The notes under the pieces are model-generated. The model saw only the letters and a list, made by a program, of their open reading frames with translations. It made no database searches and was not told the DNA's origin. Both the position numbers and the translations under genes were made by a program. Of a DNA stretch of 64,000 nucleotides, positions 1 to 47,650 are shown in pieces (position 1 is the first letter of the stretch; each line of letters starts with the position of its first letter). Source of the stretch: Verrucomicrobiota bacterium (GTDB lineage: Bacteria > Chlamydiota > Chlamydiia > Chlamydiales > SM23-39); the NCBI GenBank assembly GCA_018968815.1, contig JAGWZL010000001.1, positions 61,178 to 125,177 of the forward strand, given 5' to 3'.

Positions 1-49
1 CAACAGCCACTTTGGATTTCTAAACAAGATTCGATCTTTGAAAATGCGA

Positions 50-84
50 CAGGCCGGGGGGTTTCTCCCCGGCCTGTTTTTTTT
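50..84 (+). terminator. Rho-independent terminator, possibly bidirectional
   Basis: 10-bp GC-rich stem (50-59 caggccgggg / 67-76 ccccggcctg) with a 7-nt loop, followed by T8 (77-84). It lies between an off-window + strand gene end and the 3' end of the minus-strand hydrolase gene. A second imperfect inverted repeat (90-110 / 126-146) overlaps that gene's stop codon. Confidence 0.6.
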
Positions 85-128
85 AGTGTCTTAGAGACTG
101 TCGTTGAAAAGGTGCTTCGTCGATTTTT

Positions 129-3757: not shown

Positions 3758-3856
3758 ATCCACCCTTTTTCGGGCATTGAACCATATTTTTTTTGGTTTG
3801 ACGAGAAGAAAAATTGCGAACATCGTATGATGAACAGCAAACCCGAGGAGGAATTT

Positions 3857-4903
3857 ATGTCTCAGCAACAGCCAGATACATCCAAAAAGAAGGCGCTTGA
3901 ACTCGCCATTTCGCACATTCAAAAGCAATTTGGGGACGGGGCCATCATGGCTTTAGGCAAACACGCTTCCGCCCAAGGTTTAAGCGTCATTAAAACAGGC
4001 GCCATCTCTTTGGATCTCGCCCTTGGCATCGGCGGCGTTCCCAGAGGCCGGATCGTGGAAATCTTTGGTCCCGAGTCATCTGGTAAATCAACCCTCGCCC
4101 TTCACATCGTCGCCAACGCGCAAAAAACGGGCGGTCTCGCAGCCTATATCGATGCAGAACACGCCATGGACCCCGGTTATGCGGCAAAAATTGGAGTGAA
4201 TATCGATGATCTGATGATTTCTCAGCCAGACAATGGAGAGGAAGCCCTCAACATCGCTGAAATGCTCGCCCGCTCCAATGCAGTGGATGTGATCGTCATC
4301 GATTCGGTAGCAGCCCTCGTCCCCAAATCGGAATTGGAAGGGGAAATCGGCGATCAATTCATGGGATTGCAAGCGCGGATGATGTCGCAAGCTTTGCGCA
4401 AACTGACAGCCACTCTATCCAGGAGCAACACCTGCGCTATCTTCATCAACCAGATCCGAGAGAAAATCGGCGTCATGTTCGGCAATCCAGAAACCACAAC
4501 AGGCGGCAGAGCGCTCAAATTCTACGCATCCATTCGCCTCGACATCCGCCGCATGACCGGAATTAAAGGAAGCGCAGAAAATGCCTCCGATATCGGCTCG
4601 CGGGTCAAGGTGAAAGTGGTGAAAAACAAGTGCGCGCCTCCGTTCCAATCAGCTGAATTCGATATCCTGTTCAATGAGGGGATCTCTCACTGCGGAGCCC
4701 TCATCGATGCCGGCGTTGAACAGGGAATCATCGATAAAAAAGGGACCTGGTTCAGCTACCTCACGCACCGTCTCGGCCAAGGCAGAGAAGCAGCGCGCGA
4801 AGAACTGAAAAACAAATCTAACCTCGCCGAAGAAATTGAAAAAGCCATTTTAGAAAAAATGGCCGGCGCTAAAAAAATGGCCGAAACAAAGACCGCCAGT
4901 TAA
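3857..4903 (+). CDS. recA: Recombinase RecA
   Basis: Walker A 'GPESSGKST', '[23 protein letters not shown]', '[30 protein letters not shown]'. The ATG at 3857 is preceded by the SD-like gaggagg (3845-3851). ATGs at 3827 and 3830 are alternatives. Confidence 0.95.
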
Positions 4904-5035
4904 ATGTAAAGCCGCTTTACATTAGTCCAGGGGCCCCCAAAAACCGTTTCGGTTTTTGGGGTTGTGTATTGCCGCTTTACATTTAGTCCAGGGGCCCCCA
5001 AAAACCGCTTCGGTTTTTGGGGTTGTCGCGTTACA
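4903..5035. repeat. Palindrome plus two tandem ~61-bp hairpin units in the recA / polyprenyl-synthase convergent spacer (likely terminators)
   Basis: Palindrome aatgtaaagc-c-gctttacatt at 4903-4923. The unit 'gccgctttacatt(t)agtccaggggcccccaaaaaccg(t/c)ttcggtttttggggttgt' occurs twice. The 11-bp-stem hairpins lie at 4935-4961 and 4996-5022. Confidence 0.8.
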
Positions 5036-5866
5036 TTAGCAGATAGCGCCGCACATTCTATAGCGAGACAAAGATTCGACGAGTTCTTGGAAATCGGGCG
5101 TCCACAAACCGAGTTCTTGTAACGAAGCAACAAACGCCCGAAGCTCGTCAGCAAACAGACTCTCAGCTTTTTCTCGACCGACTGCGGAAGCCATATTAAT
5201 CCGGGCATCTTGGAGGCCGTCGAGCAAATCATCTGCGATTTGAAAAGCCATTCCTAAGTGGTAGGCGCACCGTTTCACTGCGTCTAATTGAGTGAGATCC
5301 CCTCCGCCAAAGACCCAACCGAAAATGAAGGAAATTTCGAACAGGGTGACTGTTTTTTGGTAGATGATTTTTTGGACCGTTTCAAAAGAAAAATCGGGAG
5401 GGTACAGATCCAAAAACTGACCGCCAGTTGCCCCACTGATGCCAGCGCACCGAGTGGCAGCCTCCAAGCAAATCACAGCAGCTTTTGGGTTGTTTCCGCT
5501 ATTTCTATAAATTCCGCCATACCCTTCCGCGATCAGCGCGTAGCTGGCTAAAATAGCGGCGCTTTCCCCAAATACTTTATGGAGAGAGGGACGGTTTCTG
5601 CGGACATCGTCATTGTCCATGCAGGGCAGATCATCGGCGATCAGAGAAGCAGTATGAAAAAATTCGACGCTCAGAGCGGCGGGCATGGCATCTGCTCCAA
5701 ACCCTAGCGCCTCCGCAATCATCAAAACAATCGTGGGGCGAAGTCTCTTGCCGCCGCCCCGCAATGCATATTCACAGGCGTCGCGCAAGGTGTTTTTCTC
5801 TCCCATTTGCTCAATAAAGCGAGCCAGTTCTCTGTCTATTTGGGAGAGGATGCGCTCGATTGCCAT
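5036..5866 (-). CDS. Polyprenyl (farnesyl/geranylgeranyl) diphosphate synthase
   Basis: First aspartate-rich motif 'LIADDLPCMDNDDVRRNRPSLH' and second motif 'FQIADDLLD'. 276 aa. Confidence 0.9.
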   Translation of the reverse strand: MAIERILSQIDRELARFIEQMGEKNTLRDACEYALRGGGKRLRPTIVLMIAEALGFGADAMPAALSVEFFHTASLIADDLPCMDNDDVRRNRPSLHKVFGESAAILASYALIAEGYGGIYRNSGNNPKAAVICLEAATRCAGISGATGGQFLDLYPPDFSFETVQKIIYQKTVTLFEISFIFGWVFGGGDLTQLDAVKRCAYHLGMAFQIADDLLDGLQDARINMASAVGREKAESLFADELRAFVASLQELGLWTPDFQELVESLSRYRMCGAIC

Positions 5867-6690
5867 AGCAGTTTCTCTAAAATCTTTTGTTCGATAGGGC
5901 GCACCCCTTTCGCATCGATTTGGCTACGCGAAGGGATCGTGCCCCGCAAGTTTGTAAGCGGATGAGAAAAGCTCTCTTTACCAATGAGTGTGCCTGGATT
6001 GAGTACACAATTGCAACCAATTTGCGTTCGGTCCCCAACAATCGCCCCAAATTTCTTCAGACCCGTATTCCGCCTCTTCCCCTCGACGCTCACCGACACC
6101 TCTCTTCGATCCAGTCTGAGATTGGCGCATTTGACCCCAGCGCCTAAGTTGGCGCTCGTCCCTACAATCGAATCGCCCACGTAAACAAAGTGGGTCGCCG
6201 CTGCGCGGTTGAGAAGGATCGAGTGTTTGAGCTCTGCACTATGCCCAATATGGCAGCCATCGCCTAAAATAACCTCTTCCCGAATATAGGCCCCATGCCG
6301 AATGACACAGTCCTTGCCGATAATACAAGGGCCGATGATCATGACGCCAGGCTCAATGACGGTGCCCTTTCCAATCGCCACCAGCGACGGATTTTGAATA
6401 AAAATTCCTTGAGGAATCTCGATTTCTACCCGAAAGGGATAGAGGTCCAAGTAGCTGCTGAGAGAAACAAGGGCAGACCAGATCGGCGCCCCCTCTTTCC
6501 ATAGAGAGCGGTGCTCAAAATCGTCCAATGAAAAGTAATCCGCAGTGTCAATCACGTTTCCAGTATAGCCCGAATTCCCCACACAGGTATAGGAATATTT
6601 ATTTATATATAGATAGGTATTCCTTTTCTTCAGTTCTTGTGGAAATGTTGATAGAATAGGCGGACCTAGGAGAGGAAAAAAGAGGTTCAT
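5836..6690 (-). CDS. Left-handed beta-helix (hexapeptide-repeat) transferase-family protein
   Basis: Repeated [LIV]-G-x-x-x-x hexapeptide pattern ('IGKGTVIEPGVMIIGPCIIGKDCVIRHGAYI..ILGDGCHIGHSAEL'). Its stop overlaps the downstream synthase start by 31 nt. The exact start is uncertain. Confidence 0.6.
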   Translation of the reverse strand: MNLFFPLLGPPILSTFPQELKKRNTYLYINKYSYTCVGNSGYTGNVIDTADYFSLDDFEHRSLWKEGAPIWSALVSLSSYLDLYPFRVEIEIPQGIFIQNPSLVAIGKGTVIEPGVMIIGPCIIGKDCVIRHGAYIREEVILGDGCHIGHSAELKHSILLNRAAATHFVYVGDSIVGTSANLGAGVKCANLRLDRREVSVSVEGKRRNTGLKKFGAIVGDRTQIGCNCVLNPGTLIGKESFSHPLTNLRGTIPSRSQIDAKGVRPIEQKILEKLLWQSSASSPK

Positions 6691-6706
6691 AACTTGTCAG
6701 TGGCCC

Positions 6707-6730
6707 GTTCAAAAGTGGCCACTTTTCAAC
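6707..6730. promoter_or_regulatory. 24-bp near-perfect palindrome in a divergent promoter region
   Basis: gttcaaaagtgg|ccacttttcaac with one mismatch. The half-site cttttgaac recurs at 6763-6771, just upstream of the ATG at 6777. Confidence 0.3.
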
Positions 6731-6776
6731 AAGGGCAAACCTTGCGAACAGTTCGTGAACAGCTTTTGAACAACAT

Positions 6777-7853
6777 ATGAACAAACCTTCCGCATGTCCC
6801 CATTTTGCGCAGTGTAGCGGCTGCGAGCTGCCCGACCCCTACAATCCGCCCATTTGGCAAGAAATACTCACCTTTTTTCGCGAACAGGGAGTAGAGCCAG
6901 AGCTGATCACGGATGGTTTCTCTCAAACGAGGATGAAGGCCAAACTTGCGATTCGGCCTGGACCGAATCTGGGTCTGTTTAAAAAAGGAACGCACGAGGT
7001 GATCGCAATCCCTCAATGCCTTGTGCACCACCCCTCCATCAATCGCGCTGCTCTCCTCTTAAAAGAGGAGATCATCAAACACAACATTCCCCCCTTTGAC
7101 GAGCGCTCCGGCAAAGGGGTGCTTCGGTATGCTCAAATGTTTGTAGAGCGGACCACGGGTCTTGTTCAGCTCGCTCTCGTTGCCACGCAACCGATCGATC
7201 CATTTTGTCGCGCTTTGCTCAAAAGAGGGCCGTGGCATTCGATTTGGCAAAACATTCATTCCGCCCCAAACAATGCCATTTTTGGCTCCACATGGAAGCT
7301 CCAAGCAGGCGCACCGTTTTTGTGGCAGCCCATCGGCGCCCACACGTTCCCCTTTCATCCGGCCGCTTTTTCTCAAGCCCATTTCCCCTTATTTGAGAAA
7401 ATGATCCGCAAAATCGGCGACTGGGTGGGAAGCGATTCCAAGATCCTCGAATTATATGCGGGAGTGGGCGTGATCGGCCTTTCTTTGCCGTATCAAGCGC
7501 TCACTTTAGTCGAAAGCAACCCCTTTGCCTACTTTTCCTTCCAACAGATGAAACGGGATGTGCCCTATTTCTGCGTGGATGCCAAAAAGGCCTCTTTTTC
7601 GGGCTACGATGTCACGATTGTCGATCCGCCGAGAAAAGGGCTCGATCCAGAGATCATTCCTCAAATAGCCTCCCAGAAATTGATCTACGTCAGCTGTCAA
7701 TTCAGCAGCTTTCGGCGCGACGCGATGCGCTTTTTTGAACTGGGATGGAAGTTGCGCAAGGGAGCCGGCTACCTCCTCTTTCCAGGCGCGAACCATGTAG
7801 AGGTTGTAGCCGAACTGATCCTACCCTTCAAACCGGGGTTTGCAGAGTCATGA
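6777..7853 (+). CDS. RNA (uracil-5-)-methyltransferase, RlmD/RumA/TrmA family
   Basis: N-terminal Cys cluster 'CPHFAQCSGCEL' (Fe-S type), SAM fold 'LELYAGVGVIG', and catalytic-region 'VDPPRKGL'. Confidence 0.8.
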   Translation: MNKPSACPHFAQCSGCELPDPYNPPIWQEILTFFREQGVEPELITDGFSQTRMKAKLAIRPGPNLGLFKKGTHEVIAIPQCLVHHPSINRAALLLKEEIIKHNIPPFDERSGKGVLRYAQMFVERTTGLVQLALVATQPIDPFCRALLKRGPWHSIWQNIHSAPNNAIFGSTWKLQAGAPFLWQPIGAHTFPFHPAAFSQAHFPLFEKMIRKIGDWVGSDSKILELYAGVGVIGLSLPYQALTLVESNPFAYFSFQQMKRDVPYFCVDAKKASFSGYDVTIVDPPRKGLDPEIIPQIASQKLIYVSCQFSSFRRDAMRFFELGWKLRKGAGYLLFPGANHVEVVAELILPFKPGFAES

Positions 7854-9651
7854 GAAGATAGGCTAGATCCAGGATGAACTGCTCTGAGGTCATTTCGTTG
7901 AGTGTCGTGGGGGCGCCGCCCGCCTGCTTGAGGAACACTTCGCGGAATGTATCAAAGTCAATATAATCGTTTCCTTTCTTGATCTCATCCCAGAACTCTA
8001 TCCCCTGATCGAAGAATTCTTCCCCGCGAAGCACTTCAAATTTGGTGAGCAATTCTCGATAATCGCGCTGTTCGATGGTGTGGGGAGGCAAAAGGGCTAG
8101 ATTATTTTCTCCCTCTTCAAATTCTAGCAAACGTATTTGCGTGACGACGCTCGCATTGGGAGGAAAGAAAGTGCATTCTCCATAGGCATGTTTCGGATGG
8201 ATATAGATCACCCGCTCCTCTCCGAGCTGCATCCCAATGATGGCTTGCGCAACACCTGGAATCAGCGCTGCTAAATTCTCATTTTTCACAATGCCCCAGT
8301 CTCTGGAGGATTCATCCCCTAAAATCTGATAGGTATATTGGAAGGAAACTTTATTTGTTTTGGCTGTCGCTGTTTTGTCTTTGCCCGCTTTCAACACTTT
8401 CATGTAAAGCTCATTGGGCACAAGAGCTGTCAGGTCTGTTCGTTCTGATAATTTCGTAAAATAGGCGTTTGCCCTTTCCAGGTTTTTGCAACACTCAAGC
8501 TCTCTTTCCAAAGTAGGAATATCGCTTGTTCGCCGTAAAGCGAGAGGGACGGGCATTTGCTTTCTCTTCTCACGAGCAATCACCCCTTGCATGAATGCGT
8601 TTTGAAATTTTTGCGCTGCATAAGGCTCCATCCCAATCTTCTTGTGGATGATTTCAGCCAGCCGGACGATCGTTTCTACTTTATTCGTAGGAAGACTCAG
8701 ATCTCTGATTTTTGGCACAACCGGAGTTACGATGCCGCGCGTCGTAGTCGTGAAAAATTTCTTCAGCGTCTCCTCTAGAAAATCCTTTTTAGCCAAGGCC
8801 TTTGCAATAGCGGCCCTGCCTTTCTCGTACGAGAGAACTAAACTCTTCGTCTCTTCGATCCCTGGAAGACAATAGAAACTGCGGCTCTCAAACGCGTTTA
8901 AGCCCTTCAATTTGTCGCTCATGACGACATATTTCGCAAGCGCGTTTTCTTCTTCCATCACAGTGTGAAATCCAAACGAGGGACTTTTTTGATATTTGTT
9001 CGCTGAAGCCGTCCAGGTTTTGCTCAACTTCTTCGAGACAAACGGAAACTCATCTTGCGATCCAAGACTCAAAGGATCCTGCAAATATTGGATACGCCCA
9101 TGCACAATCGCATTTTGCCTGCCGTGCCCTAAAAGAATCTCCACCAACACAGGATGGTTGTCCATGAGTTTGCTAAACCAATGCGGAGAGGAGGAAATAG
9201 ACTGGAGAAAGCTCTCGGGAGTCACTGTCGGTCCCAACGCATATTGAAATAACGAGAGATTCTCTTGCACCGTGTGTAAAAATGCCTTGCGGTTGATACA
9301 AATAAAGTGGCATTTTCCTTTGTCTTGATGCGTCGTTAAAATATATTCCTTATCATCCACGGGCAGCTGTAAATCGGCCCACAGCTCTTTTCCTTTCATC
9401 AAAAAGATCGTTTCAGGCTTGGGAGATGAGAAGAAACGAATGGAAGGAGCTTCGCATGTGTCGATGCTCATCGGCGCATCCCCATAGAGCACGTAACCGG
9501 CCGATGAATTCACAAGGGTTTGAAAGAAATCTTGCAGCAAAACTTTCTGTTTCTTGGATAACTCATGGGAAAATTCTTTTACTGGGTCGGGTCCCGCCCA
9601 AAGAATACTCGTTATGAATAAAAACGAACAAGAAAGAGCTTTAAATCCCAT
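7828..9651 (-). CDS. Secreted protein with an FKBP-type peptidyl-prolyl isomerase domain
   Basis: Signal-like N-terminus 'MGFKALSCSFLFITSILWA'. There is an FKBP_C-like segment 'LIPGVAQAIIGMQLGEERVIYIHPKHAYGE'. The large N-terminal part has unknown function. Confidence 0.6.
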   Translation of the reverse strand: MGFKALSCSFLFITSILWAGPDPVKEFSHELSKKQKVLLQDFFQTLVNSSAGYVLYGDAPMSIDTCEAPSIRFFSSPKPETIFLMKGKELWADLQLPVDDKEYILTTHQDKGKCHFICINRKAFLHTVQENLSLFQYALGPTVTPESFLQSISSSPHWFSKLMDNHPVLVEILLGHGRQNAIVHGRIQYLQDPLSLGSQDEFPFVSKKLSKTWTASANKYQKSPSFGFHTVMEEENALAKYVVMSDKLKGLNAFESRSFYCLPGIEETKSLVLSYEKGRAAIAKALAKKDFLEETLKKFFTTTTRGIVTPVVPKIRDLSLPTNKVETIVRLAEIIHKKIGMEPYAAQKFQNAFMQGVIAREKRKQMPVPLALRRTSDIPTLERELECCKNLERANAYFTKLSERTDLTALVPNELYMKVLKAGKDKTATAKTNKVSFQYTYQILGDESSRDWGIVKNENLAALIPGVAQAIIGMQLGEERVIYIHPKHAYGECTFFPPNASVVTQIRLLEFEEGENNLALLPPHTIEQRDYRELLTKFEVLRGEEFFDQGIEFWDEIKKGNDYIDFDTFREVFLKQAGGAPTTLNEMTSEQFILDLAYLLMTLQTPV

Positions 9652-9725
9652 AAAATACCTCTATTTTGGAACAGTAACAAGCAACTCTTTTCTTGTCAAA
9701 AAAATATACGACCCCCCTCCCAGTT

Positions 9726-10592
9726 TCAAGGAGTTATATGGATCGCCTGTTTCAAAGGAGGAATGAAGCGTCTCACAAGACACTCTTGATCCTCGATTTC
9801 AAATCCCATCTTCAGATAGGCCTTTTTTTCCTCTTCGGGGAGTTTATAGGGGAATGAAAGCACTTTTGCGACAGAATGAATGGGCTTAAAGGATTTGCGG
9901 TCGATATAACGTTGCACCCTTGATTCAGCATAGCTGACATTCATCGCGATCTGCTTATCTTTGAAATGACATCGATAGGGGGGCCATGTGAAGTGGGAGC
10001 ATTGATCGGGTTTGACAATCATTTTTTCCACCCCGCGATAGGGATGTTGCTCAGGCTCTTTGGTGATCTCGGTCGACTCGATGACCAATTCTCTTTGAGG
10101 CAGAGCCCCTTTCCAAGAAGCATCAAAAAACTCGCTCGCCAAGGCGAGCCCGGGGAAGTCGTTGAATTCCTGCAAAAAATCGCGGATTGAGTGATCGGGG
10201 GGCAGGACTAGAAATTCATCGACGCTTAAGAAAAGGAGCCACTTTGTGTGGCCGAGCGCAGTCCTCTTCAGAGCGTTTTCATAAGCGGGCATTTTTGTGC
10301 TCAGCAGCCAGAGCGGATCTTCCTCGTCTCGTGGAGCTAGATCGGGCCAATGGACCAATGTGACGAACTGTTGTTGGATATAGGGCTGCAAAACCTTGAC
10401 TGAGCCATCCGTGCTTCCATTGTTGTACAGGTATACATGGTCGACACCGAGAAGCTTGTGATATTCGATCCATTCGCGAAGAAAGGGAGCTTCATTCTTG
10501 AAGAAAGCGCAAATAGATAAAAAATATCGATTCTCTTTGGCAGGTAGCCAACAACAAATAAGAAGAAAAAATACGAGCCACTTTTTTTTCAT
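9726..10592 (-). CDS. Glycosyltransferase family 92 (DUF23-like)
   Basis: 'FKNEAPFLREWIEYHKLLGVDHVYLYNNGSTDGS' is the GT92 signature as I remember it. It has an N-terminal signal/anchor. A 4-nt ATGA overlap with the upstream gene suggests an operon. Confidence 0.75.
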   Translation of the reverse strand: MKKKWLVFFLLICCWLPAKENRYFLSICAFFKNEAPFLREWIEYHKLLGVDHVYLYNNGSTDGSVKVLQPYIQQQFVTLVHWPDLAPRDEEDPLWLLSTKMPAYENALKRTALGHTKWLLFLSVDEFLVLPPDHSIRDFLQEFNDFPGLALASEFFDASWKGALPQRELVIESTEITKEPEQHPYRGVEKMIVKPDQCSHFTWPPYRCHFKDKQIAMNVSYAESRVQRYIDRKSFKPIHSVAKVLSFPYKLPEEEKKAYLKMGFEIEDQECLVRRFIPPLKQAIHITP

Positions 10593-11869
10593 CGAGAAAC
10601 CTTTATATAAGATGTATAGGCATTAAAAAACTGCGAAGGGTAAGGGTTGGAATAGGCTTCAAGGTCGGTCAGTCGATTGCGGTCCATCGTATAACGCAGT
10701 TTATGAAATTCATAGATCGCCGCTTCCATCCATTCCGAAGTGGCCGCACTCCCCCGTAAAAAGGGCATGCAAATCAGTTCAAGCCGTAACAGGGCGATCA
10801 GTTCTTGGAGTTCCACAATATTTTTCCCATTCCATTGGACAGCTTTCGCAAAGACATGGGATGCATCGTCTAATGTTTTCTGAATCAAGGACTCGTGCTG
10901 GTGCACCACCACCACTTCTGAACACCGCGCCATTCTTTCGCAAGGGTCCTCTTCTGGATCGTCTGGATTTTGATATCCCCAGGTGATGTATTGAAAGAGC
11001 GGTTCCATGTTTCCTTGAATTTCCAGGCGCACTGTACAAAGCACATAAAAGGACTTGAGGTAGTTTAAATTGCCCACCCATTTCATCGGTCCGCCTAATT
11101 TCCCTGCCTTCATTGGCGAGGGAAAATCATTCATCATCAACATTAAAAGGGATCCCATGCGCAAATGGCTGTATTTTTCGGGCGCCGTCAGCCTCAGCTG
11201 TCTGAGCGCTTGGAAAAGGGTTTTTTTGCCAGACAGGTCTTTCGGGGGCTCTTTCAAAAGAGCGGCAGGGAACCATTGCGGGAGATCGGTTTCTTGGAGC
11301 CCTTCATGCCATTTCTCTCTCTTCAAATCGTCCTTATCAAAGATTTGAATCTCTACGGAGGAACGCTTTCCTAGAAAAGTTTCTTCGTGCAACCAGGTCT
11401 TTTCTAGAAACTGCCCTCCTTCTCGGGGCATTGTAGAGAGCGCCTCTTTTAAAAATGTCAAAATCTGTTTGCCGTATTCGCTATAACCGCCGATAAACGG
11501 AGTGTAAGAAAAATCGGCGCATCCTTCTAGATCCCTGCGCGCCCCAAATTGATCGCTTCCTACCGTATGGTGATCGATGGCCAGTTGTCTTCTCTCGAGA
11601 GCCAGAAATTGAAAGATCTGGAAAAAGCATTCTGAGAGATCGCGCTCTTTCTGCACAGCCTCGCGGATCTTTTCCGACGATTTGCGAATGATGTTTTGGG
11701 CTCTAGCGAGATAATCGTCTTGCTGATTTCCAAACTCTGAACCCCGTACGACCATGAAGGCGGGGCAATAGGAGGGAATGCCGCTTTCTTCAGGACAAAG
11801 CACATCAGCCAGATTGTCATCTGCTGCGAGACTCCCCAAAAATACCAACAATAAAGGTAACCACCACAT
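10589..11869 (-). CDS. Secreted hypothetical protein
   Basis: 426-aa ORF with signal peptide 'MWWLPLLLVFLGSLAA'. It is translationally coupled to the GT92 gene. No family was recognised. Confidence 0.6.
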   Translation of the reverse strand: MWWLPLLLVFLGSLAADDNLADVLCPEESGIPSYCPAFMVVRGSEFGNQQDDYLARAQNIIRKSSEKIREAVQKERDLSECFFQIFQFLALERRQLAIDHHTVGSDQFGARRDLEGCADFSYTPFIGGYSEYGKQILTFLKEALSTMPREGGQFLEKTWLHEETFLGKRSSVEIQIFDKDDLKREKWHEGLQETDLPQWFPAALLKEPPKDLSGKKTLFQALRQLRLTAPEKYSHLRMGSLLMLMMNDFPSPMKAGKLGGPMKWVGNLNYLKSFYVLCTVRLEIQGNMEPLFQYITWGYQNPDDPEEDPCERMARCSEVVVVHQHESLIQKTLDDASHVFAKAVQWNGKNIVELQELIALLRLELICMPFLRGSAATSEWMEAAIYEFHKLRYTMDRNRLTDLEAYSNPYPSQFFNAYTSYIKVSR

Positions 11870-11943
11870 GAGAGGATACGTTTATACAAAATTTTCTTTT
11901 TTATTTGCAAAAAAATTCATACTCTTGGAAAATTTTCCGTCAA

Positions 11944-12747
11944 ATGAATCGGCTTCTTGTCACTCTTCTTTTCTTTTCGATTGCGTTCGCGGATGAAGGG
12001 CTCGCTTTCCGGGGCTCTCTTTGCCGCACCGATTATCTGGAGCCCAATCAAGAGATTGAAGGGGTCGTTTCGTTGTTGAACAATTCGAGACAACCTCTAT
12101 CGGTCAAGATCTATCCGACCGATTTGACCAGTACCGTCAATGAAGAGGTCAAATTTCCCAAGGCGGGAACTTGTGAAAGATCCAATGCCTCTTGGATCGA
12201 TTGCAAATACGACATCATTGAGATTCCCCCTTTGGCTCTGGCTTCATACCGCTATAAGGTACGTGTGCCGAATGATGCTTCTCTGCAGGGTTCTTATTGG
12301 AGTGTGTTGATGTTCGAAGCGGAAGAGGACCCTATTCCTTTTTCCTTTCCCGATGGGGCTGAGGTGAAGGCGACGAAACGGTATGCCTATCAAGTTGTCT
12401 CGCAAATAGGCCATCAAGGGGTCTGTGACGTCAAGGTTTTGGATAGACGCGTTGAGCGGCAGCGCCACGCAAAACATTATATCTTAGAAGTGGAAAACTC
12501 GGGTTCGCTGTCTCTCCGTTTGGAACCTGAGGTAGAGGTGATTGATGAACAAGGGCGCTATTTGGGCTTTTTCTCCTCCTCCCCCAGATTGCTGTATCCT
12601 CTTTGTTCCACAAGATTTGAGATCGATATTTCGCAAATCCCGAAAGGGTCTTACAGGGCGCGTGTTGCATTCAAGTCGGAGGAGATCACTGTATTCAGCA
12701 CAGAATACGCGATTTCTGTGCCGGAGGCGCTGGATCGCAAAAATTGA
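11944..12747 (+). CDS. Secreted hypothetical protein (beta-rich)
   Basis: The ATG at 11944 gives signal peptide 'MNRLLVTLLFFSIAFA'. The ORF-track start at 11905 is a TTG. The sequence is beta-strand-rich and no family was recognised. Confidence 0.55.
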   Translation: MNRLLVTLLFFSIAFADEGLAFRGSLCRTDYLEPNQEIEGVVSLLNNSRQPLSVKIYPTDLTSTVNEEVKFPKAGTCERSNASWIDCKYDIIEIPPLALASYRYKVRVPNDASLQGSYWSVLMFEAEEDPIPFSFPDGAEVKATKRYAYQVVSQIGHQGVCDVKVLDRRVERQRHAKHYILEVENSGSLSLRLEPEVEVIDEQGRYLGFFSSSPRLLYPLCSTRFEIDISQIPKGSYRARVAFKSEEITVFSTEYAISVPEALDRKN

Positions 12748-12752
12748 GCAGG

Positions 12753-13943
12753 ATGGTACCCATGCGAAACCTTTTTGTGTACGCACTCTCAGAGATTCTC
12801 GGCGTGGCGTTCATTTTTTTTGTTTTCACGCCTCCCCTTGTTTCTAGAGAGAAGACGATTTGTCTCAGCATGATCGTGAAAGACCAAGAATCGACCATTA
12901 AAACCTGTTTGAGATCGGTCAAGTCTTTCATCGATACTTGGGTGATTGTCGATGTGGGGTCGACAGATGGAACCAGGCGGGTCATTGAAGAGGAGCTCAA
13001 GAATATTCCCGGCGAGCTTGTGGAACGGCCGTGGAAAAGTTTTGGAGAAAACCGGGAAGAAGCGCTCCAGCTCGCTCGGCCGAAAGGGGATTATCTGCTG
13101 CTGCTGGATGCAGATGAGCAGATCATTTTCGCCTCTTCTTTTGAGGATCCTCTGTTCGATCAAGATATTTATTTTGCATGGAGAGGCACCAAGCACGCCT
13201 CATCGATCACACCTTTATTGGTCCGTTCTTCTCTCCCAGCGAAATGGGTTGGATATGCGGATGAATATTTTCATGCCGAAACCTCATTTACTTCAGATGT
13301 GCTCATCAAACTTCGTTGTCTGGTGGTTGAGGGCGGCATGCCAGGGTATGCGATCAAAAAGGCTTGGCAGAAGGTCAAATTGTTAGAAAAGTGGTTGAAA
13401 GAGCATCCTTCAGACCCCCGGTTTGTCTTTGCATTAGCTGAAAATTATCGCGAGGCGGGAGAGCTGGGCAAAGCTCTGGAGTGCTATCAGAAACGGATTC
13501 AGTTAGGGGGGTGGGTCGAAGAGGTTTTTTGTTCGATGCTTCAATCTGCGCACATGCTCAAGGCGCTGGGCTTGTCTTCCGATATTGTTTTGCTCAGCTA
13601 TCAACAAGCGCATCACTTTCGACCTCACCGACCTGATGGTGTTTTTTATCTTTCTGAGTGGTACAACCAACTGGGGAGATACGAAGAGGCGTGCGCCTGC
13701 ATAGAGAACCATGCAAATCTTCCTAAGCCGAAGAATTTAGATATTCTATGCTACCACAACTGGGTGGATGAATATGGTTTATTGTTTCAGCACTCTATTT
13801 GCGCCTATTATGTGGGCAAGTATGCGACTTCGCTCAATCTTTGCGATCGTTTGCTTTTGATGGCGCAACTTCCGGATGCTTTTCGAAAACGGGTCGAAGA
13901 AAATCGCACCTATCCTCTCGCCAAGATCAAGGGCTTGTATTGA
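12753..13943 (+). CDS. GT2 glycosyltransferase with C-terminal TPR-like domain (paralog 1)
   Basis: 'ICLSMIVKDQESTIKTCLRSVKSFIDTWVIVDVGSTDGT' and the DxD motif 'LLLDADE'. The C-terminal half is helical-repeat. It is a clear paralog of 18858..20051. Start could be the ATG at 12753 or 12762 (the ORF-track 12744 is a TTG). Confidence 0.8.
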   Translation: MVPMRNLFVYALSEILGVAFIFFVFTPPLVSREKTICLSMIVKDQESTIKTCLRSVKSFIDTWVIVDVGSTDGTRRVIEEELKNIPGELVERPWKSFGENREEALQLARPKGDYLLLLDADEQIIFASSFEDPLFDQDIYFAWRGTKHASSITPLLVRSSLPAKWVGYADEYFHAETSFTSDVLIKLRCLVVEGGMPGYAIKKAWQKVKLLEKWLKEHPSDPRFVFALAENYREAGELGKALECYQKRIQLGGWVEEVFCSMLQSAHMLKALGLSSDIVLLSYQQAHHFRPHRPDGVFYLSEWYNQLGRYEEACACIENHANLPKPKNLDILCYHNWVDEYGLLFQHSICAYYVGKYATSLNLCDRLLLMAQLPDAFRKRVEENRTYPLAKIKGLY

Positions 13944-13959
13944 TCTCAAGCAGTTGCGC

Positions 13960-18784
<4,825 letters not shown>

Positions 18785-18857
18785 TGACAAAAATTGCTCC
18801 ACACAAATTTGTTTTTTTGATCTAATAGTTCCCCAAATTAAGAGGTGTCTACCATCG

Positions 18858-20051
18858 ATGTTCAAGTTTCTCCAAACGTCCCTTTTCTTATTCGTCATCT
18901 GCGTCTACGGGTCGGCAAAACAAACGATCTGTCTCAATATGATTGTAAAGGATGAAAGTCAGGTGATTTGCCGCTGTCTCGATTCTGTGAAGCCGTTCAT
19001 TGATTATTGGGTCATTGTAGATACTGGATCAACGGATGGTACACAGCGGATCATTACAGAGTATTTAAAAGGCATTCCTGGGGAATTGTATGAGCGTCCT
19101 TGGAGAAATTTTGGAGAAAATCGAACGGAGGCCGTTCGACTGGCTAAAGGGAAAGGCGATTACATTCTGTTTATGGATGCAGACGATACGCTTGTCTATC
19201 CGCCAGACTTTCATTTTCCTTGGCTGGACAAAGATCAATATAACATGTGGCGAGGCAGTCAGCGGTTTAGTTATGAAAAGCCGCAATTGGTTCGAGGCGA
19301 TCTTCCTTGGAAATGGGTTGGTGTGACGCACGAATATCTGAGTTGTGATCAGTATTGCACAACAGAAGTGTTGTCCGATATTCGCTATGAATGCGGCGAA
19401 GGGGGCGCTACCCGCAAGGATCTCAAGAAGAAATTTACGAAAGATATCGAACTGCTCACGCAAGGGCTCAAAGAAGAGCCTAAGAATGAACGATATATGT
19501 TCTATCTGGCGGAGAGCTATCGCTGTATCAATGAAAGGGGGCTGGCGCTGGAGACCCATTTGAAGCGGATTGCGATGGGCGGATGGGACCAAGAGATTTT
19601 CTGGTCGAAGCTCCAAGTCTCTTTGCAATTGTGGGAATTACGAGCGCCCTCTTCGGTGGTGATTGCTAGTTTAGAGGATGCGCATCAATTTCGTCCTCAT
19701 CGAGTCGAGCCGATTTATTATCTTGCGGTGTTCTACAATCAACAAGAGCAGTACGAAAAGGCTTATCGTTGCATCAAAGATTGGCTGGCTCTGCCAAAGC
19801 CTGAGCAGAAAGATTGTCTGTTTAATGAAGATTGGCAGCACGATTATGGTCTTCCGTTTGAGCTCTCGATTTGCGCTTACTATGTGGGACAGTACCAAGA
19901 ATCTCTGGACATCTGCAATGTTTTGCTCAATGACTCCACGCTTCCGGACGATGTGCGAGCGCTGGCTGAGAGGAATCGGCAATTTCCTCTCGCAAAACTT
20001 CAATCCGAGAACAAAGAACGGATGGTCTCTACGTCGATCCATCCTAAATAA
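18858..20051 (+). CDS. GT2 glycosyltransferase with C-terminal TPR-like domain (paralog 2)
   Basis: 'ICLNMIVKDESQVICRCLDSVKPFIDYWVIVDTGSTDGT' and 'LFMDADD'. It is colinear with 12753..13943 along its full length. The start was set to the ATG at 18858 ('MFKFLQTSLFLFVICVYG'), because the track start at 18609 would read through the palindromic element. Confidence 0.8.
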   Translation: MFKFLQTSLFLFVICVYGSAKQTICLNMIVKDESQVICRCLDSVKPFIDYWVIVDTGSTDGTQRIITEYLKGIPGELYERPWRNFGENRTEAVRLAKGKGDYILFMDADDTLVYPPDFHFPWLDKDQYNMWRGSQRFSYEKPQLVRGDLPWKWVGVTHEYLSCDQYCTTEVLSDIRYECGEGGATRKDLKKKFTKDIELLTQGLKEEPKNERYMFYLAESYRCINERGLALETHLKRIAMGGWDQEIFWSKLQVSLQLWELRAPSSVVIASLEDAHQFRPHRVEPIYYLAVFYNQQEQYEKAYRCIKDWLALPKPEQKDCLFNEDWQHDYGLPFELSICAYYVGQYQESLDICNVLLNDSTLPDDVRALAERNRQFPLAKLQSENKERMVSTSIHPK

Positions 20052-21478
20052 GCCTGTTTATCTTCCATGCCAATGGACAGAATCAGTTCCGTTTCTTCTG
20101 GATTGAGAACGATCCCAAAGCAGCACTCAATCCCTTGGTGGTTAAAAACGAAGGGGCGAGAAATTTTGCCGATATGCAACGTCTGATCTAACCAGAGGAA
20201 ACGGTGGGTATACACGCGACATTCGTTGTCTAGCCAAAGGACTTCGTGCACGAGCATCAAATAGCCTCCATCAAAGGCAATGGGGGGCGCAGATCCTCGG
20301 AATCTGGAACAGTCGTAAGGGGGATCATACTCCAAAAAGGTTGAAATCGATTCGCTTTCAGGATCGAGTTCGAAAATGCGGAAAGGGGCGTATCCATACA
20401 CCGTCAACAACTTTTCCTGATGGATGAAAGGGAGCCAATTTTTTTCGCATCGTCCGATTTCTGGTCCAAGGAGCGGCCACAATCGATCTAGGAAAAGGAT
20501 CTCGGAGCCTTTTGGGGAGAGCTTGCACAGTGAGATCTGAGGCACTTTATCAATACTGGTATCGCATGTTGTGCAAGAAAACCAGAGCCGATCTCGATAT
20601 TGAAAGAGGCGCGCATCTTCTAGCCCTTCAATCGCTGAATCAATGCGAGGGCGATGCAAAGCATCGACAATCTCTCTTTTCTGAAGTAACTTGAAAGAAG
20701 GATCATAAGAAAGAAGGAAATTTCTCGTTCGGATTTTGCCATCTGGGTCGATTGTGTGGTAATATTTTCCTTCTTGGATGGTGTAATTCACCGATCTGAG
20801 AATGACTTCGTAGCCATTGTTTGTTTTGATGATGGAGGGGTTCATGGGGTGGTAGCGCTCTTCGCCATGTTCTTGAATCTGGGGGAGGTCGACGTTGATT
20901 TCCTTTAACTGTAATCCTTTTAAATTGGAGAGATAAAATCTGGAATTTTTGATGGCTAACGATTTGATTGCATCGGGAACATTTTTGCCCAAAAGGAGGC
21001 GGTTGATGGCGCGAAAACCCTCTTCGCGAAATGGGGTATAATAGGCAGCGATCGAGAGTTCTTCATCGAGTTGATGCACGAGGGTGGAACTGTTGTAGGG
21101 GCAAGCTTTTCCCTGTTTGGCAAAGTTGTAGGCCTGCCAAGGGTTGTCTTGGAGGCGGTAGACTCTGGCCATTCTGTGCAGGGGTTCTGCTCGGGTGGGG
21201 TTATAAGAGAAGGCGGTGCGATAAGCGTCGAGGGCTGCTGGCAAATATCCCAATGTTTCTCGGCATTCGCCTAGCATGAGCCAGCAAAAGAAACAGGCAT
21301 CGCGCTCTTGTGTTTCGGCGGAGATGGCTTCGTAGAGTTGAATGGCTTCTTGGTATTTTCCTTCGGACTTATAGGTGTTGGCGCGTTGTAGTTCAAGGGG
21401 TCCGTCTGTGGCTGTGAGGCAGGAGATGAGAAGAAGAAGGACGAACGATTTTTTCATTGGTGCCAACAAGGTTCTCAA
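20000..21478 (-). CDS. Secreted TPR protein with uncharacterised C-terminal domain (possible carbohydrate-active fold)
   Basis: Signal-like N-terminus and a TPR segment ('YKSEGKYQEAIQLYEAI'). The C-terminal ~300 aa carry 'MNPSIIKTNNGYEVILRSVNYT' and 'EKNWLPF'. It lies 16 nt downstream of the repeat/barrel gene. The function call is weak. Confidence 0.6.
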   Translation of the reverse strand: MRTLLAPMKKSFVLLLLISCLTATDGPLELQRANTYKSEGKYQEAIQLYEAISAETQERDACFFCWLMLGECRETLGYLPAALDAYRTAFSYNPTRAEPLHRMARVYRLQDNPWQAYNFAKQGKACPYNSSTLVHQLDEELSIAAYYTPFREEGFRAINRLLLGKNVPDAIKSLAIKNSRFYLSNLKGLQLKEINVDLPQIQEHGEERYHPMNPSIIKTNNGYEVILRSVNYTIQEGKYYHTIDPDGKIRTRNFLLSYDPSFKLLQKREIVDALHRPRIDSAIEGLEDARLFQYRDRLWFSCTTCDTSIDKVPQISLCKLSPKGSEILFLDRLWPLLGPEIGRCEKNWLPFIHQEKLLTVYGYAPFRIFELDPESESISTFLEYDPPYDCSRFRGSAPPIAFDGGYLMLVHEVLWLDNECRVYTHRFLWLDQTLHIGKISRPFVFNHQGIECCFGIVLNPEETELILSIGMEDKQAYLGWIDVETIRSLFSD

Positions 21479-25256: not shown

Positions 25257-25622
25257 AATCCTTCAAATTGACTTTAAGTTTTCAAAGTGAATACTTTTAG
25301 GTCATAATTACCTCATAAACTTCTTAATAGAATCACGCTGTCTATAAATCAATAGCAGAGAGCCAGGAGAGAAGGGCTCCAAATGTATCTCACCCGCAGA
25401 TCGGCGCCGAAGAGCTACGAGCTGAAAAGATTCAAGTCGTTCTCATCTTTCAGCTTAAGGATGCGTCTGGGATCATGAATGGCGACACAAAAGATCGTTC
25501 ATCCCAGAGTTAAGAATGATGCAGCTCCTCATTTGTGCAAGTGGAAGGAAAGATTGGGTCATTGTTTAAAATCATTTTTATCAATATGCTTTAGGGCATT
25601 TCATTCATTCTTGAAGGTGCCT

Positions 25623-26501
25623 ATGAAAAAAAACGAAAGCAACAGCCTGATTCCCAACAAACTATCATTTGAAGGTTTAAAGCAGATCAACGAGCACGGA
25701 ATTGAATATTGGAGTGCCAGGAGCTTGCAGCCGTGCCTCGGATACTCTCAATGGAGGCGCTTCGAAAACGCCATCCAAAAAGCTATTGAGTCGTGCAAGC
25801 AGTCTGGAAATGATCCCAATCATCACTTTGCCGGCTCCGGCAAACAGATCAATTTCGGGAAAGGGGCTACTCAAGTTGTTGAAGATTATCATCTTTCGCG
25901 TTTTGCCTGTTATCTGATCGCGCAAAATGGAGATGCAAGAAAACCAGAAATTGCCCATGCTCAGAAGTACTTTGCGATTCAAACTCGACGCCAAGAACTG
26001 ACCGATGCTGCCGTTGCCGATCTCGAACGCATAGAGTTACGCAAGCAAGCCTCTCAAGACTTCAAAGCTCTCTCTGGAGCAGCGCGCGATGCGGGTGTCC
26101 AAAACAAAATGTTCGGAATTTTCCATGATGCCGGATACAAAGGGCTCTATGGGGGATTGGGGGCCGACGCAATCAAGGCACGCAAAGGGATTAATCCCAA
26201 AGAACAGCTCATGGATCGGATGGATAGAACCGAGTTGGCGGCTAATCAGTTTCGGATGACCCAAACGCGAGAAAAGCTCAAACGGGAAGGCATCAAGAAT
26301 CAAAGAGATGCTATCGAGGCCCACGAAGCAGTAGGAAAGGAGGTTCGGGCTGCCATCGCTAAAATCGGCGGTACTCCCCCAGAAAATATTCCCCCTGCTG
26401 AACACATCAAAAAAGTAGAAAAACGCTTAAAAAAGAACAAGCCAAAGTTACTTTTAGATGATGAAGATGCCGGATTGCTGCCTCCAAAACATTTCGAATA
26501 A
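25623..26501 (+). CDS. dinD: DNA-damage-inducible protein D homolog
   Basis: 'GIEYWSARSLQPCLGYSQWRRFENAIQKA', 'LSRFACYLIAQNGDARKPEIAHAQKYFAIQTRRQEL' closely parallels E. coli DinD as I remember it. The start was set to the ATG at 25623 (MKKNESN). The track start at 25479 adds 48 unsupported codons. Confidence 0.85.
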   Translation: MKKNESNSLIPNKLSFEGLKQINEHGIEYWSARSLQPCLGYSQWRRFENAIQKAIESCKQSGNDPNHHFAGSGKQINFGKGATQVVEDYHLSRFACYLIAQNGDARKPEIAHAQKYFAIQTRRQELTDAAVADLERIELRKQASQDFKALSGAARDAGVQNKMFGIFHDAGYKGLYGGLGADAIKARKGINPKEQLMDRMDRTELAANQFRMTQTREKLKREGIKNQRDAIEAHEAVGKEVRAAIAKIGGTPPENIPPAEHIKKVEKRLKKNKPKLLLDDEDAGLLPPKHFE

Positions 26502-26565
26502 ATGGAATGCAGGGCTTTCCATCTAGGTGCGATAGTTTGAACATCACTCACTGGTAAAAAAGAAA

Positions 26566-26640
26566 TCTGGGTGAGAGGATTTGAACCTCCGACCTCTTGC
26601 ACCCCATGCAAACGCGCTAGCCAAGCTGCGCTACACCCAG
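26566..26640 (-). tRNA. tRNA-Pro (anticodon GGG)
   Basis: Hand-folded cloverleaf. Acceptor CTGGGTG/CACCCAG with C1:G72 (typical of bacterial tRNA-Pro). D-stem GCGC/GCGC. Anticodon stem TTTGC/GCAAG with loop A-T-GGG-G-T. T-arm GGAGG-TTCAAAT-CCTCT. Discriminator A. CCA is not encoded. Confidence 0.9.
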
Positions 26641-26904
26641 ATGATCTGACAATACGGCGGCAAGACCCTCAAATTGGATCTCGGCCCGTTTAAATTCTTT
26701 GACTCCGTGCTGGGCGCACTCCTCAACAATTTTTTCCAGGGTGTCGCCAGGGTGGAGTTCGAGGGCTGTGATATCGACCGAAATGGAGGCCGAAAAGACC
26801 ACCCCGTTGCGGAGGCCTTTGACTCGAAAATTCGCAAAAATCGCATCTTTTTTGCGTGTAATATTGGTAAATCGAATCAAATTATTTTCAGCCAAGTTTT
26901 TCAT
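26617..26904 (-). CDS. Hypothetical small protein (doubtful)
   Basis: 95-aa ORF whose last 8 codons overlap the 5' end of the tRNA. No family was recognised. Confidence 0.3.
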   Translation of the reverse strand: MKNLAENNLIRFTNITRKKDAIFANFRVKGLRNGVVFSASISVDITALELHPGDTLEKIVEECAQHGVKEFKRAEIQFEGLAAVLSDHLGVAQLG

Positions 26905-47640: not shown

Positions 47641-47650
47641 ATAAACAAGT

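Follow-up and report, generated by a model that had tools for sequence, protein, structure and literature searches.

The 64,000-nt window analyzed here, taken from contig JAGWZL010000001.1 (assembly GCA_018968815.1) and treated as chlamydial for reasons given below, contains a cluster in which three tandem genes for collagen-like proteins are bracketed by two genes for paralogous glycosyltransferases that couple a family 2-type glycosyltransferase domain to tetratricopeptide repeats (TPRs), hereafter GT2-TPR. The features are collected in Table 1, where all coordinates are positions in the window and designations such as L088 denote comparable loci recovered from other genomes, metagenomes, plasmids, and viral contigs. 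The open reading frame (ORF) table and matches to Pfam Collagen (E = 1e-31 to 5e-39) place the three collagen-like genes in tandem on the minus strand, and Pfam Glycos_transf_2 and TPR models match both full-length bracketing enzymes, which are 47% identical to each other, just as a first-pass annotation of this DNA had read them. Its account of the wider flank, namely, a GT92-like enzyme, two secreted proteins of no known family, and a TPR protein, is likewise borne out by the searches described below.

Table 1. Features of the window, with the collagen-like cluster first (aa, amino acids; CTD, C-terminal domain; HMM, hidden Markov model)
Feature	Positions	Strand	Remarks
Collagen-like protein 1, 504 aa	13960-15474	-	Signal peptide, Cys-Pro stub, ~312 aa of GxT, CTD; ATG start
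CTD of protein 1	13960-14433	-	CTD HMM E 4e-42; 51% identical to protein 3 CTD
Collagen-like protein 2, ORF of 515 aa	15474-17021	-	Signal peptide, Cys-Pro stub, ~311 aa of GxT, CTD
CTD of protein 2	15474-15926	-	BclA-like head; CTD alignment and HMM
Collagen-like protein 3, ORF of 520 aa	17058-18620	-	Signal peptide, Cys-Pro stub, ~310 aa of GxT, CTD
CTD of protein 3	17058-17510	-	Sequence used for the structure model
GT2-TPR paralog a	12744-13943	+	Likely ATG at 12753; GT-A and TPR-like helical domain; 50% identical to the syntenic L088 gene
GT2-TPR paralog b, 397 aa	18858-20051	+	Signal-peptide-like N terminus; 59% identical to L001 4208-5440
GT92-like glycosyltransferase, 288 aa	9726-10592	-	Pfam PF01697; signal-peptide/anchor-like N terminus (MKKKWLVFFLLICCWLPA)
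Exported protein, 426 aa, no family match	10589-11869	-	Signal-peptide-like N terminus; 45%-identical L088 ortholog in the same position
Exported protein, 280 aa, no family match	11905-12747	+	Signal-peptide-like N terminus; 43%-identical L088 ortholog in the same position
Exported TPR-X protein	20000-21478	-	Signal peptide, TPR Pfam matches, 300-aa C-terminal "X" domain
Inverse-autotransporter protein, 1253 aa	21495-25256	-	C-terminal beta-domain PF11924, E 4e-7; directly beside the cluster
BRO-N domain protein	25479-26501		Immediately right of the cluster and the inverse-autotransporter gene
tRNA-Pro(GGG)	26565-26641	-	Right of the cluster, near the BRO-N gene
CT583/pGP6-D (UPF0137) gene paired with parA	37948-39446	-	E 1.7e-81; arrangement as on chlamydial plasmids
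pel-like exopolysaccharide operon	46828-58883	+	PelA-like GH114, 931-aa TPR PelB-like, GAF PelD-like, TPR PelE-like, PelF, PelG
891-aa protein with C-terminal GH63/mannosylglycerate-hydrolase-like domain	129-2804	-	Adjoins a glucokinase gene

The collagenous stalks of the three proteins, which had been put at about 300 residues of G-X-T triplets, measure 312, 311, and 310 residues in proteins 1, 2, and 3, respectively, and thus differ by no more than 2 residues. Each chain has 87 to 98 in-register G-X-Y triplets, in which Pro is the most frequent X residue and Thr occupies 74 to 87% of the Y positions, amounting to 73 to 84 Thr residues per chain. Scaled by the F-BclA fiber (196 nm per 701 residues; PMC12357932), each stalk is predicted to be ~87 nm long. 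The helix interruptions of proteins 2 and 3 are in register with each other and those of protein 1 are out of register, making heterotrimers of proteins 2 and 3 possible, as is a nap of uniform height. Aligned with each other, the proteins share 78% and 64% identity overall and 75% and 51% in the CTD; this mutual CTD identity, together with the 111 homologs found elsewhere (see below), indicates that the domain is not a chance or low-complexity artifact. The alignment contains every one of the short strings quoted in the first-pass annotation, namely, RECNPPP, KCPPA, SLISLNT(T/N)NGNIVI, G(Y/F)YQVCFG, and, at the C terminus, AYVTIV(Q/K)L, with the small deviation that the middle collagen gene reads GFYQVCFG. 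The NCBIfam models for Scl/Lcl collagen adhesins score these ORFs well under cutoff, and therefore only the repeats match those families. The long plus-strand "GPV" ORFs that cover the collagen DNA are antisense shadows.

The three collagen genes are co-oriented and partly translationally coupled, the stop codon of gene 2 overlapping the ATG of gene 1 in the sequence TAATG. Choosing the first in-frame start with a sensible N terminus, we find the probable starts of proteins 2 and 3 to be internal GTG codons, at ~16961 and ~18542, which yield a signal peptide beginning MFRKRVR(F/S)... followed by (L/S)KCPPA. Approximately 60 nt upstream of these GTG codons (minus strand, 16962-17021 and 18543-18602) are nearly identical in the two genes, and TATAAT- and TATACA-like boxes precede these leaders, which suggests that the promoter and 5' leader were duplicated. 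All three proteins look like Sec substrates on the basis of their predicted N termini. In each, the mature form would begin with 2 or 3 residues, then a Cys, a Pro-rich turn, and the collagen helix. The motif Cys-x-PP-x-x-GPPGP is conserved; in the window it takes the forms KCPPA.. and ECNPPP.., and in relatives those of DCGKPPKQGPPGP, CGDCGSAPKPGPPGP, CESAPPFGPPGP, and DECGPPPEQG. We considered and rejected a lipoprotein anchor: the Cys lies 2 to 4 residues past an AxA-type cleavage site with Lys or Glu at position -1, and this is not a lipobox.

A search with the single sequence of the ~150-aa C-terminal domain retrieved nothing in Pfam, the PDB, or a word-indexed protein database. When 1.84 billion cluster representatives were searched exhaustively with a profile, 111 relatives were recovered, of which 36 scored below 1e-10. 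Most are fragments of 140 to 150 aa with the CTD boundary as their exact starting point; those of full length consist of a signal peptide, a Cys, the string PPKQGPPGP, a GxT collagen stretch, and the CTD. A word-index search with the resulting 77-sequence alignment returned five proteins only. The same alignment, used as a profile against the PDB, recovered the F-BclA head from the fibrillum at the F-ENA tip (9h38; E = 3.6e-10) and five BclA heads (3twi, 2z5w, 2r6q, 3tyj, and 1wck; E = 5e-8 to 5e-7), with weak matches to ExsFA/BxpB (E = 0.05 to 0.5). Further, 48 of the 77 family members match the Pfam BclA_C model (PF18573; best E = 5.5e-10), the three copies from the window not being among them. 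An AlphaFold2 model of the protein 3 domain is a 12-strand all-β structure predicted with a mean local-distance-difference score (pLDDT) of 95.3 and a predicted template-modeling score (pTM) of 0.89. Foldseek searches of the PDB with this model placed F-BclA first (E = 1e-9; template-modeling [TM] scores of 0.74 to 0.86, with a TMt of 0.80 to 0.86 for 9h38) and BclA second (E = 1e-8; TM scores of 0.68 to 0.77, with a TMt of 0.73 to 0.77 and of 0.77 for 1wck), followed at lower ranks by 4-1BBL, C1q, TWEAK, EDA, ExsFA, and BxpB (E = ~1e-6 to 1e-5). The domain is 24 to 29% Ser/Thr with 6 to 8 charged residues, and the F-BclA head is likewise Ser/Thr rich. The profile matches and the predicted fold place the CTD in the TNF/C1q jelly-roll superfamily, as a divergent representative of its BclA-type branch, in agreement with the jelly roll predicted by the first-pass annotation. 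As the crystallized BclA and F-BclA heads are both trimeric (PMC12357932), the CTDs would be expected to trimerize by analogy with these homologs.

Profile searches of the PDB with the family of the bracketing GT2-TPR enzymes recovered GmaR (E = 4e-14), SunS (E = 1e-11, over query residues 21 to 240), and ThuS (E = 2e-10). A model of paralog b built from 112 sequences (pLDDT of 96.1) has the strands and helices of a GT-A domain at residues 24 to 179, followed by nine helices at residues 189 to 393; in Foldseek searches, its top matches are SunS (7msn) and ThuS (7msk), with E values of 5e-18 to 1e-16 over 395 to 405 columns, the next class (TPR proteins and TarS/TarP/RmlT) being 11 orders of magnitude weaker at 1e-7 or worse. 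The DxD motif, D107-A-D109, is invariant in the 112 sequences. On the strength of these profiles and the model, we assign the enzymes to the SunS/GmaR/SgtA architectural class, in which a GT-A catalytic domain is combined with a predicted TPR substrate-binding domain and the substrates are polypeptides. Orthology to SunS itself was rejected, as the two enzymes score 46 and 31 bits with the NCBIfam equivalog model TIGR04195, whose cutoff is 350, and align with it over only their N-terminal 90 residues.

A feature of these enzymes that the first-pass annotation overlooked, and in which the locus departs furthest from BclA, is an apparent export signal. In 82 of 84 close orthologs, the GT domain is preceded by a hydrophobic N-terminal segment with an AxA-like site, laid out as M-x-R/K, 12 to 15 hydrophobic residues, an (A/S)-x-A site, and K-(E/Q)-K. 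This segment is absent from the viral homologs (0 of 75) and from the Bacillus and Cupriavidus plasmid homologs described below (0 of 2), from which it looks like an export signal added specifically in the chlamydial clade. Judging from the ORF translations, every protein of the cluster has a signal-peptide-like start.

The neighborhoods of related genes tie the enzymes to the collagens. In L001, from an uncultured Chlamydiae metagenome-assembled genome (MAG), three collagen-plus-CTD genes are interleaved with genes for a GT2-TPR (59% identical) and a GT92 enzyme (44%), with further putative transferases after them. L084, on a 1.17-Mb contig, has two collagen-plus-CTD genes together with GT92, GT2-TPR, GT2-TPR-X, and two GT25 genes, and L006 combines collagen-plus-CTD, GT2-TPR, and GT92 genes. 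Three more loci were reached through the CTD, these being the scope of our CTD-first survey of co-occurrence. In the first, L088, from a Chlamydiales MAG, at least three collagen-plus-CTD genes in tandem are followed by genes for GT2-TPR, the 280-aa and 426-aa proteins, and GT92, which is the gene order of the left flank in our window. L089, from a Rhabdochlamydiaceae MAG, has a collagen-plus-CTD gene with GT92 directly after it and, within 7 kb, GT2-TPR, GT2-TPR-X, GT25, GT11, and methyltransferase genes. In L090, a collagen-plus-CTD gene of 1934 aa lies beside methyltransferase, GT2-TPR-X, and GT25 genes. A narrow pattern made from three CTD sequences found one genome locus and no metagenome locus. 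Thus, clusters of collagen, GT2-TPR, and GT92 genes recur at no fewer than five further loci from chlamydial MAGs or metagenomes. Two of the L088 chains (1518 and 1520 aa; positions 1-10447) and that of L090 (71-5875) imply stalks of ~400 to 500 nm, and the public gene calls at these two loci consist of only a "hypothetical protein" of 148 to 158 aa, corresponding to the head, and long antisense ORFs.

The association extends well beyond the chlamydiae. A tblastn search of plasmids recovered a GT2-TPR homolog on a plasmid of Bacillus thuringiensis HD1011 (L171; 27% identity over 339 aa, E = 3e-18), the divergent neighbor of which encodes a "collagen-like repeat preface domain" protein with GxT repeats and a BclA-like head (hhalign probability of 73%, E = 3e-5). 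On a Cupriavidus pauculus plasmid (L172), a 39%-identical enzyme adjoins a GAT-collagen lipoprotein with a different C-terminal domain. Viral contigs contain 120 GT2-TPR relatives of 30 to 41% identity, many from giant-virus MAGs (sampled as L091-L170). GT2-TPR genes therefore recur beside GxT stalks regardless of the head domain, as expected if the stalk is the substrate of the enzyme.

The GT92-like protein of the cluster matches Pfam Glyco_transf_92 (PF01697) with an E value of 1.8e-24 and 87.1 bits against a cutoff of 23, over positions 10 to 217 of the 249 in the profile; its orthologs (44 to 49% identity) adjoin collagen-plus-CTD genes in L001, L006, L084, L088, and L089 and occur almost solely in collagen-bearing loci. 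The TPR-X protein corresponds to the C-terminal two-thirds of GT2-TPR-X fusions of 660 to 720 aa in other chlamydial MAGs, with 43 to 45% identity over ~460 aa to those of L084, L087, L089, and L090. Profile searches with its X domain gave no Pfam or PDB match (the best in the PDB being a GH43 enzyme at E = 1.3), with a weak resemblance to Pfam BMT (PF12141; 0.024) in 2 of 6 members. For the 280-aa exported protein, there was no Pfam, NCBIfam, or usable PDB match, and for the 426-aa protein, there was no Pfam match or meaningful PDB match. We did not retain an identification of the latter as a XopAH/AvrB effector, the NCBIfam XopAH model matching its C-terminal 100 residues far under cutoff (E = 0.0035). 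Its C-terminal region contains the string MPFLRGSAATSEW, a loose and unsubstantiated resemblance to a degenerate Fido motif.

Taken as a whole, the locus in our judgment probably specifies glycosylated collagen-like fibers in a BclA/SgtA-type system that has been adapted to a Gram-negative cell of the chlamydial type. Under this reading, the heads would trimerize as in BclA and F-BclA and thereby nucleate a collagen triple helix of ~87 nm, with the head distal. The N-terminal Cys might staple the three chains, tie the fiber by disulfides to the Cys-rich chlamydial outer envelope, or both. In chlamydial elementary bodies, the outer membrane complex is cross-linked by disulfides; that it takes part here is speculation on our part. 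GT2-TPR would start O glycosylation on the solvent-exposed Thr residues of the GxT stalk, as SgtA does on BclA3, this modification being suggested by analogy with the SgtA-like character of the adjacent enzymes, and GT92 and the other enzymes might then lengthen the glycan. The product would be a glycosylated nap, or fibers, serving in attachment to host cells or in protection of the extracellular stage. Of the points that the first-pass annotation named as able to refute such a system, the two open to computation, the jelly-roll fold of the heads and the linkage of the glycosyltransferase genes to the collagens, have held.

Several observations weigh against this reading. None of the three CTDs of the window matches Pfam BclA_C, even at an E value of 10, or C1q; the case for homology of the heads is consequently made by the family profile together with the predicted fold. 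No route of export across the outer membrane is encoded within the cluster. To our knowledge, nucleotide sugars, which GT-A enzymes need, are not known in the bacterial periplasm, and this makes a simple SgtA-like scheme topologically awkward given the export signals on the glycosyltransferases. Finally, the GT2-TPR family is large, with more than 6,000 relatives, and its genomic contexts are varied. We sampled the best 80 metagenome loci and 80 IMG/VR loci, many of the latter from giant-virus MAGs. In the metagenomes, where many of the loci lie at contig ends, GxT collagen is encoded in the flanks of 16 to 17 of the 80 and this particular CTD in 5; in the viral set, a collagen-like gene lies within 5 kb in 20 of 80, and this CTD occurs in none. 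The resulting frequency of 20 to 25% stands without a random-locus background and is not a formal enrichment, and ~75 to 80% of the sampled loci have no nearby collagen gene. Collagen genes are nearer to the glycosyltransferase than uniform placement would have them, though modestly so (P = 0.02 in metagenomes and P = 0.06 in viruses). On the long chlamydial contigs of L085-L087, GT2-TPR genes occur without collagen, beside genes for autotransporters or inverse autotransporters and GT25, GT92, GT10, and GT11 enzymes. Because most loci are collagen free and these three pair with autotransporters, GT2-TPR may have other substrates. The linkage stands for L001, L006, L084, L088, and L089 and is partial in the family at large, where it is seen in only ~20 to 25% of the sampled GT2-TPR loci.

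This last group of observations is what would be expected if the glycosyltransferases did not act on the collagens and the cluster were instead a general surface-glycan island, concerned with glycosylation of lipooligosaccharide or autotransporters, in which the collagens merely reside. The inverse-autotransporter gene directly beside the cluster would fit such an island, as would the beta-domains homologous to its product that adjoin GT2-TPR genes in L085, L089, and L027. We nevertheless consider it quite unlikely, since the pairs of GT2-TPR and collagen genes on the Bacillus and Cupriavidus plasmids and in giant viruses have different heads, so that what the enzymes share as a partner is the GxT stalk; the GT92 orthologs keep almost exclusively to collagen-bearing loci; and SgtA, which alone among enzymes of this architecture and gene position has been tested biochemically, glycosylates GPT repeats. 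The inverse-autotransporter protein, which contains ~20 tandem repeats of ~37 aa with the consensus FAELTCPEPSxFWMDGIAF.KE.FAPEPVV.LRQIR, may, given the position of those homologous beta-domains, be a second substrate of glycosylation or a partner of the fibers.

Returning to the fiber system, the export signals shared by the fibers and the enzymes suggest that glycosylation probably takes place outside the cytoplasm. Given the requirement of GT-A domains for nucleotide sugars, the hydrophobic segment would be either an unusual membrane anchor or a sign of extracytoplasmic glycosylation. A bolder version, which we regard as tentative and on the whole doubtful, is that an entire nucleotide-sugar-dependent line of protein glycosylation has been moved out of the cytoplasm as a counterpart of that in the Golgi apparatus, the fibers acquiring their glycans once exported, whether in the periplasm or in the inclusion lumen, from nucleotide sugars of the host. 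UDP-glucose is imported into the inclusion lumen of Chlamydia trachomatis (PMC4829429), which makes extracytoplasmic nucleotide-sugar chemistry conceivable for chlamydiae.

The surface location is the least certain element of the favored explanation, and two other destinations have to be weighed. The collagens could be soluble mimics of C1q, TNF, or adiponectin that are released to the host or the inclusion lumen and whose trimeric head would bind a host receptor or glycan there, in which case they would form no nap. They have the same domain order as the secreted animal C1q and adiponectin proteins, their heads give significant fold matches to TNF and C1q, and they lack an anchor domain, lipobox, or β-barrel. 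However, their nearest relatives in both sequence and structure are fiber tips and spore naps rather than TNF ligands, the collagen stalks of 1,500 to 1,900 aa in relatives are better suited to fibers, and the Cys motif before the helix is conserved, leaving release an unlikely fate. Alternatively, the Sec signal by itself takes a protein only as far as the periplasm, and with no dedicated outer-membrane export gene in the cluster, the collagens might remain there as a structural element of the envelope, such as a spacer or a cross-linked wall layer of the elementary body, in which the Cys could be linked to periplasmic Cys-rich envelope proteins. Yet a rigid helix of 87 nm, or of 400 to 500 nm in the relatives, far exceeds the width of the periplasm, and the characterized relatives are all external; we hold this to be very improbable.

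The assignment of the window to the chlamydiae, which the first-pass annotation had called "chlamydia-like," runs against the NCBI label "Verrucomicrobia bacterium," which is also attached to the MAGs GCA_028873315.1 and GCA_018971665.1 (proteins MBU6382757-64). A tblastn search of PLSDB with the CT583/pGP6-D family gene of the window gave 120 plasmid matches, all to Chlamydiota; the closest named homologs of the GT2-TPR and CTD families come from Chlamydiales and Rhabdochlamydiaceae MAGs; and L001 is itself from a Chlamydiae MAG. On the basis of these affinities, we regard the window as chlamydial or, failing that, as belonging to the Planctomycetes-Verrucomicrobia-Chlamydiae (PVC) group.

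To the right of the cluster and the inverse-autotransporter gene, the BRO-N gene and tRNA-Pro(GGG) possibly mark the border of a genomic island. A connection of this tRNA to the Pro-rich collagen genes was considered and dropped, as these genes favor CCA and CCG codons. The same two features, together with the match of GT2-TPR to a PHROG family and the presence of the same fold at the tips of many phage tail fibers and in giant-virus collagens, might be taken to indicate a remnant of prophage or giant-virus tail fibers or fibrils without a cellular role. We rejected a prophage origin and hold any such remnant to be extremely improbable, given that the neighborhood lacks structural, integrase, and packaging genes of phages and that the CTDs match no PHROG; moreover, the collagens have Sec signal peptides, which tail fibers lack, and several chlamydial MAGs have the cluster conserved among the same cellular neighbors. 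Elsewhere in the window, the pel-like operon, which includes PelF (DUF3492 and GT4; E = 3e-57) and PelG (E = 6.5e-103), is unexpected in an otherwise chlamydial-looking genome, and the 891-aa protein at the left end represents further glycan metabolism close to the locus.

In full-text searches of the literature, we found no paper tying collagen-like proteins to Chlamydiae or Chlamydiales beyond incidental co-mentions, in keeping with the earlier supposition that no collagen nap has been described for Chlamydiota. If such fibers coat the infectious stage of environmental chlamydiae, they would be candidates for determinants of host attachment and host range, like BclA3 and the Pasteuria collagens. 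The two-gene rule of a GT-A-plus-TPR enzyme beside a GxT collagen holds in giant viruses as well as in Firmicutes, Proteobacteria, and Chlamydiae and could be of use in annotation. Such genes are systematically hidden in public data, where assemblies are interrupted within the repeats and nothing but the 150-aa head and antisense ORFs is called. The export signals on the GT-A enzymes also make the site and the sugar source of chlamydial protein glycosylation directly testable.

The best-characterized parallel is the BclA3/SgtA pair of Clostridioides difficile. SgtA is a 358-aa protein with a GT-A domain at residues 1 to 260 and four TPRs at residues 262 to 358, and its gene lies directly upstream of bclA3; the purified enzyme uses UDP-N-acetylglucosamine and Mn2+ to add β-O-GlcNAc to Thr residues of GPT-repeat peptides (PMC7157674). 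As in our window, a GxT collagen thus stands beside a GT-A-plus-TPR enzyme of ~360 to 400 aa, with the same domain order, size, and adjacency, a likeness that is drawn from the published domain description of SgtA (CD3350) and not from a sequence comparison. The two systems differ in that SgtA works in the cytoplasm of the mother cell and lacks the signal peptide of the chlamydial enzymes; the C terminus of BclA3 is described differently (PMC7157674); and the window has three collagens and two GT2-TPR paralogs, plus GT92 and TPR-X.

The BclA and F-BclA fibers share with the window a GxT stalk and a C-terminal trimeric head of the TNF/C1q-like type (the trimer being predicted in our case), and a glycosyltransferase gene is also found near the F-BclA/BclA gene (PMC12357932). 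They differ primarily at the N terminus, where BclA has a 38-residue leader that binds BxpB/ExsFA and F-BclA docks through a hook motif; the exosporium leader is not present in the window collagens, which instead have a predicted cleavable Sec signal peptide followed by the Cys-PP...GPPGP motif. Further, the host of the window is a Gram-negative, nonsporulating member of the PVC group, and the identity of the heads is just 21 to 25%.

Among the enzymes, SunS, ThuS, and GmaR are the nearest in solved structures and sequences and likewise combine a GT-A and a TPR-like domain in polypeptide glycosylation. SunS and ThuS, at 17% identity, differ in modifying Cys or Ser residues of small peptides, and there are no glycocin precursor genes in the window. 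GmaR, which is both the O-GlcNAc transferase of Listeria flagellin and an antirepressor (PMC9638930 and PMC3150276), differs in its flagellin substrate, and all three of these enzymes are cytoplasmic.

Giant viruses offer a parallel from a shared, protist-associated niche. Collagen proteins with C1q-like heads are found in Klosneuvirus, Hokovirus, Bodo saltans virus, Pithovirus, and Tupanvirus, and GT2-TPR relatives are common in giant-virus MAGs, a quarter of them adjoining collagen-like genes. In contrast to the chlamydial enzymes, the viral GT2-TPR proteins have no signal peptide, and HMM searches detected this CTD family in no sampled viral locus, a giant-virus-like member of the family (P0077) giving no match in IMG/VR. 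The Mimivirus collagen L71 and its enzyme L230, a lysyl hydroxylase joined to a GT25-like glucosyltransferase that acts on hydroxylysine (PMC9614988), represent a glycosylation chemistry different from that of the window.

The animal C1q, adiponectin, and collectin proteins have the same overall organization of a signal peptide, a short Cys-containing N terminus, a collagen stalk, and a trimeric jelly-roll head, the trimer again being a prediction for the window proteins. Three tandem genes for paralogous chains, two of which have in-register interruptions, also recall the C1q A, B, and C genes. The resemblance is one of fold, with an identity of 12 to 15%; the repeats are GxT rather than Gly-Pro-hydroxyproline, and the locus encodes no prolyl hydroxylase. 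Across these comparisons, the GxT stalk, the BclA-type head, and the adjacent GT-A-plus-TPR enzyme are already known from Bacillus, Clostridioides, Pasteuria, phages, and giant viruses, and what is new lies in the host lineage, the replacement of the exosporium leader by a Sec/Cys N terminus, the larger set of enzymes, and, above all, the predicted export of the glycosyltransferases.

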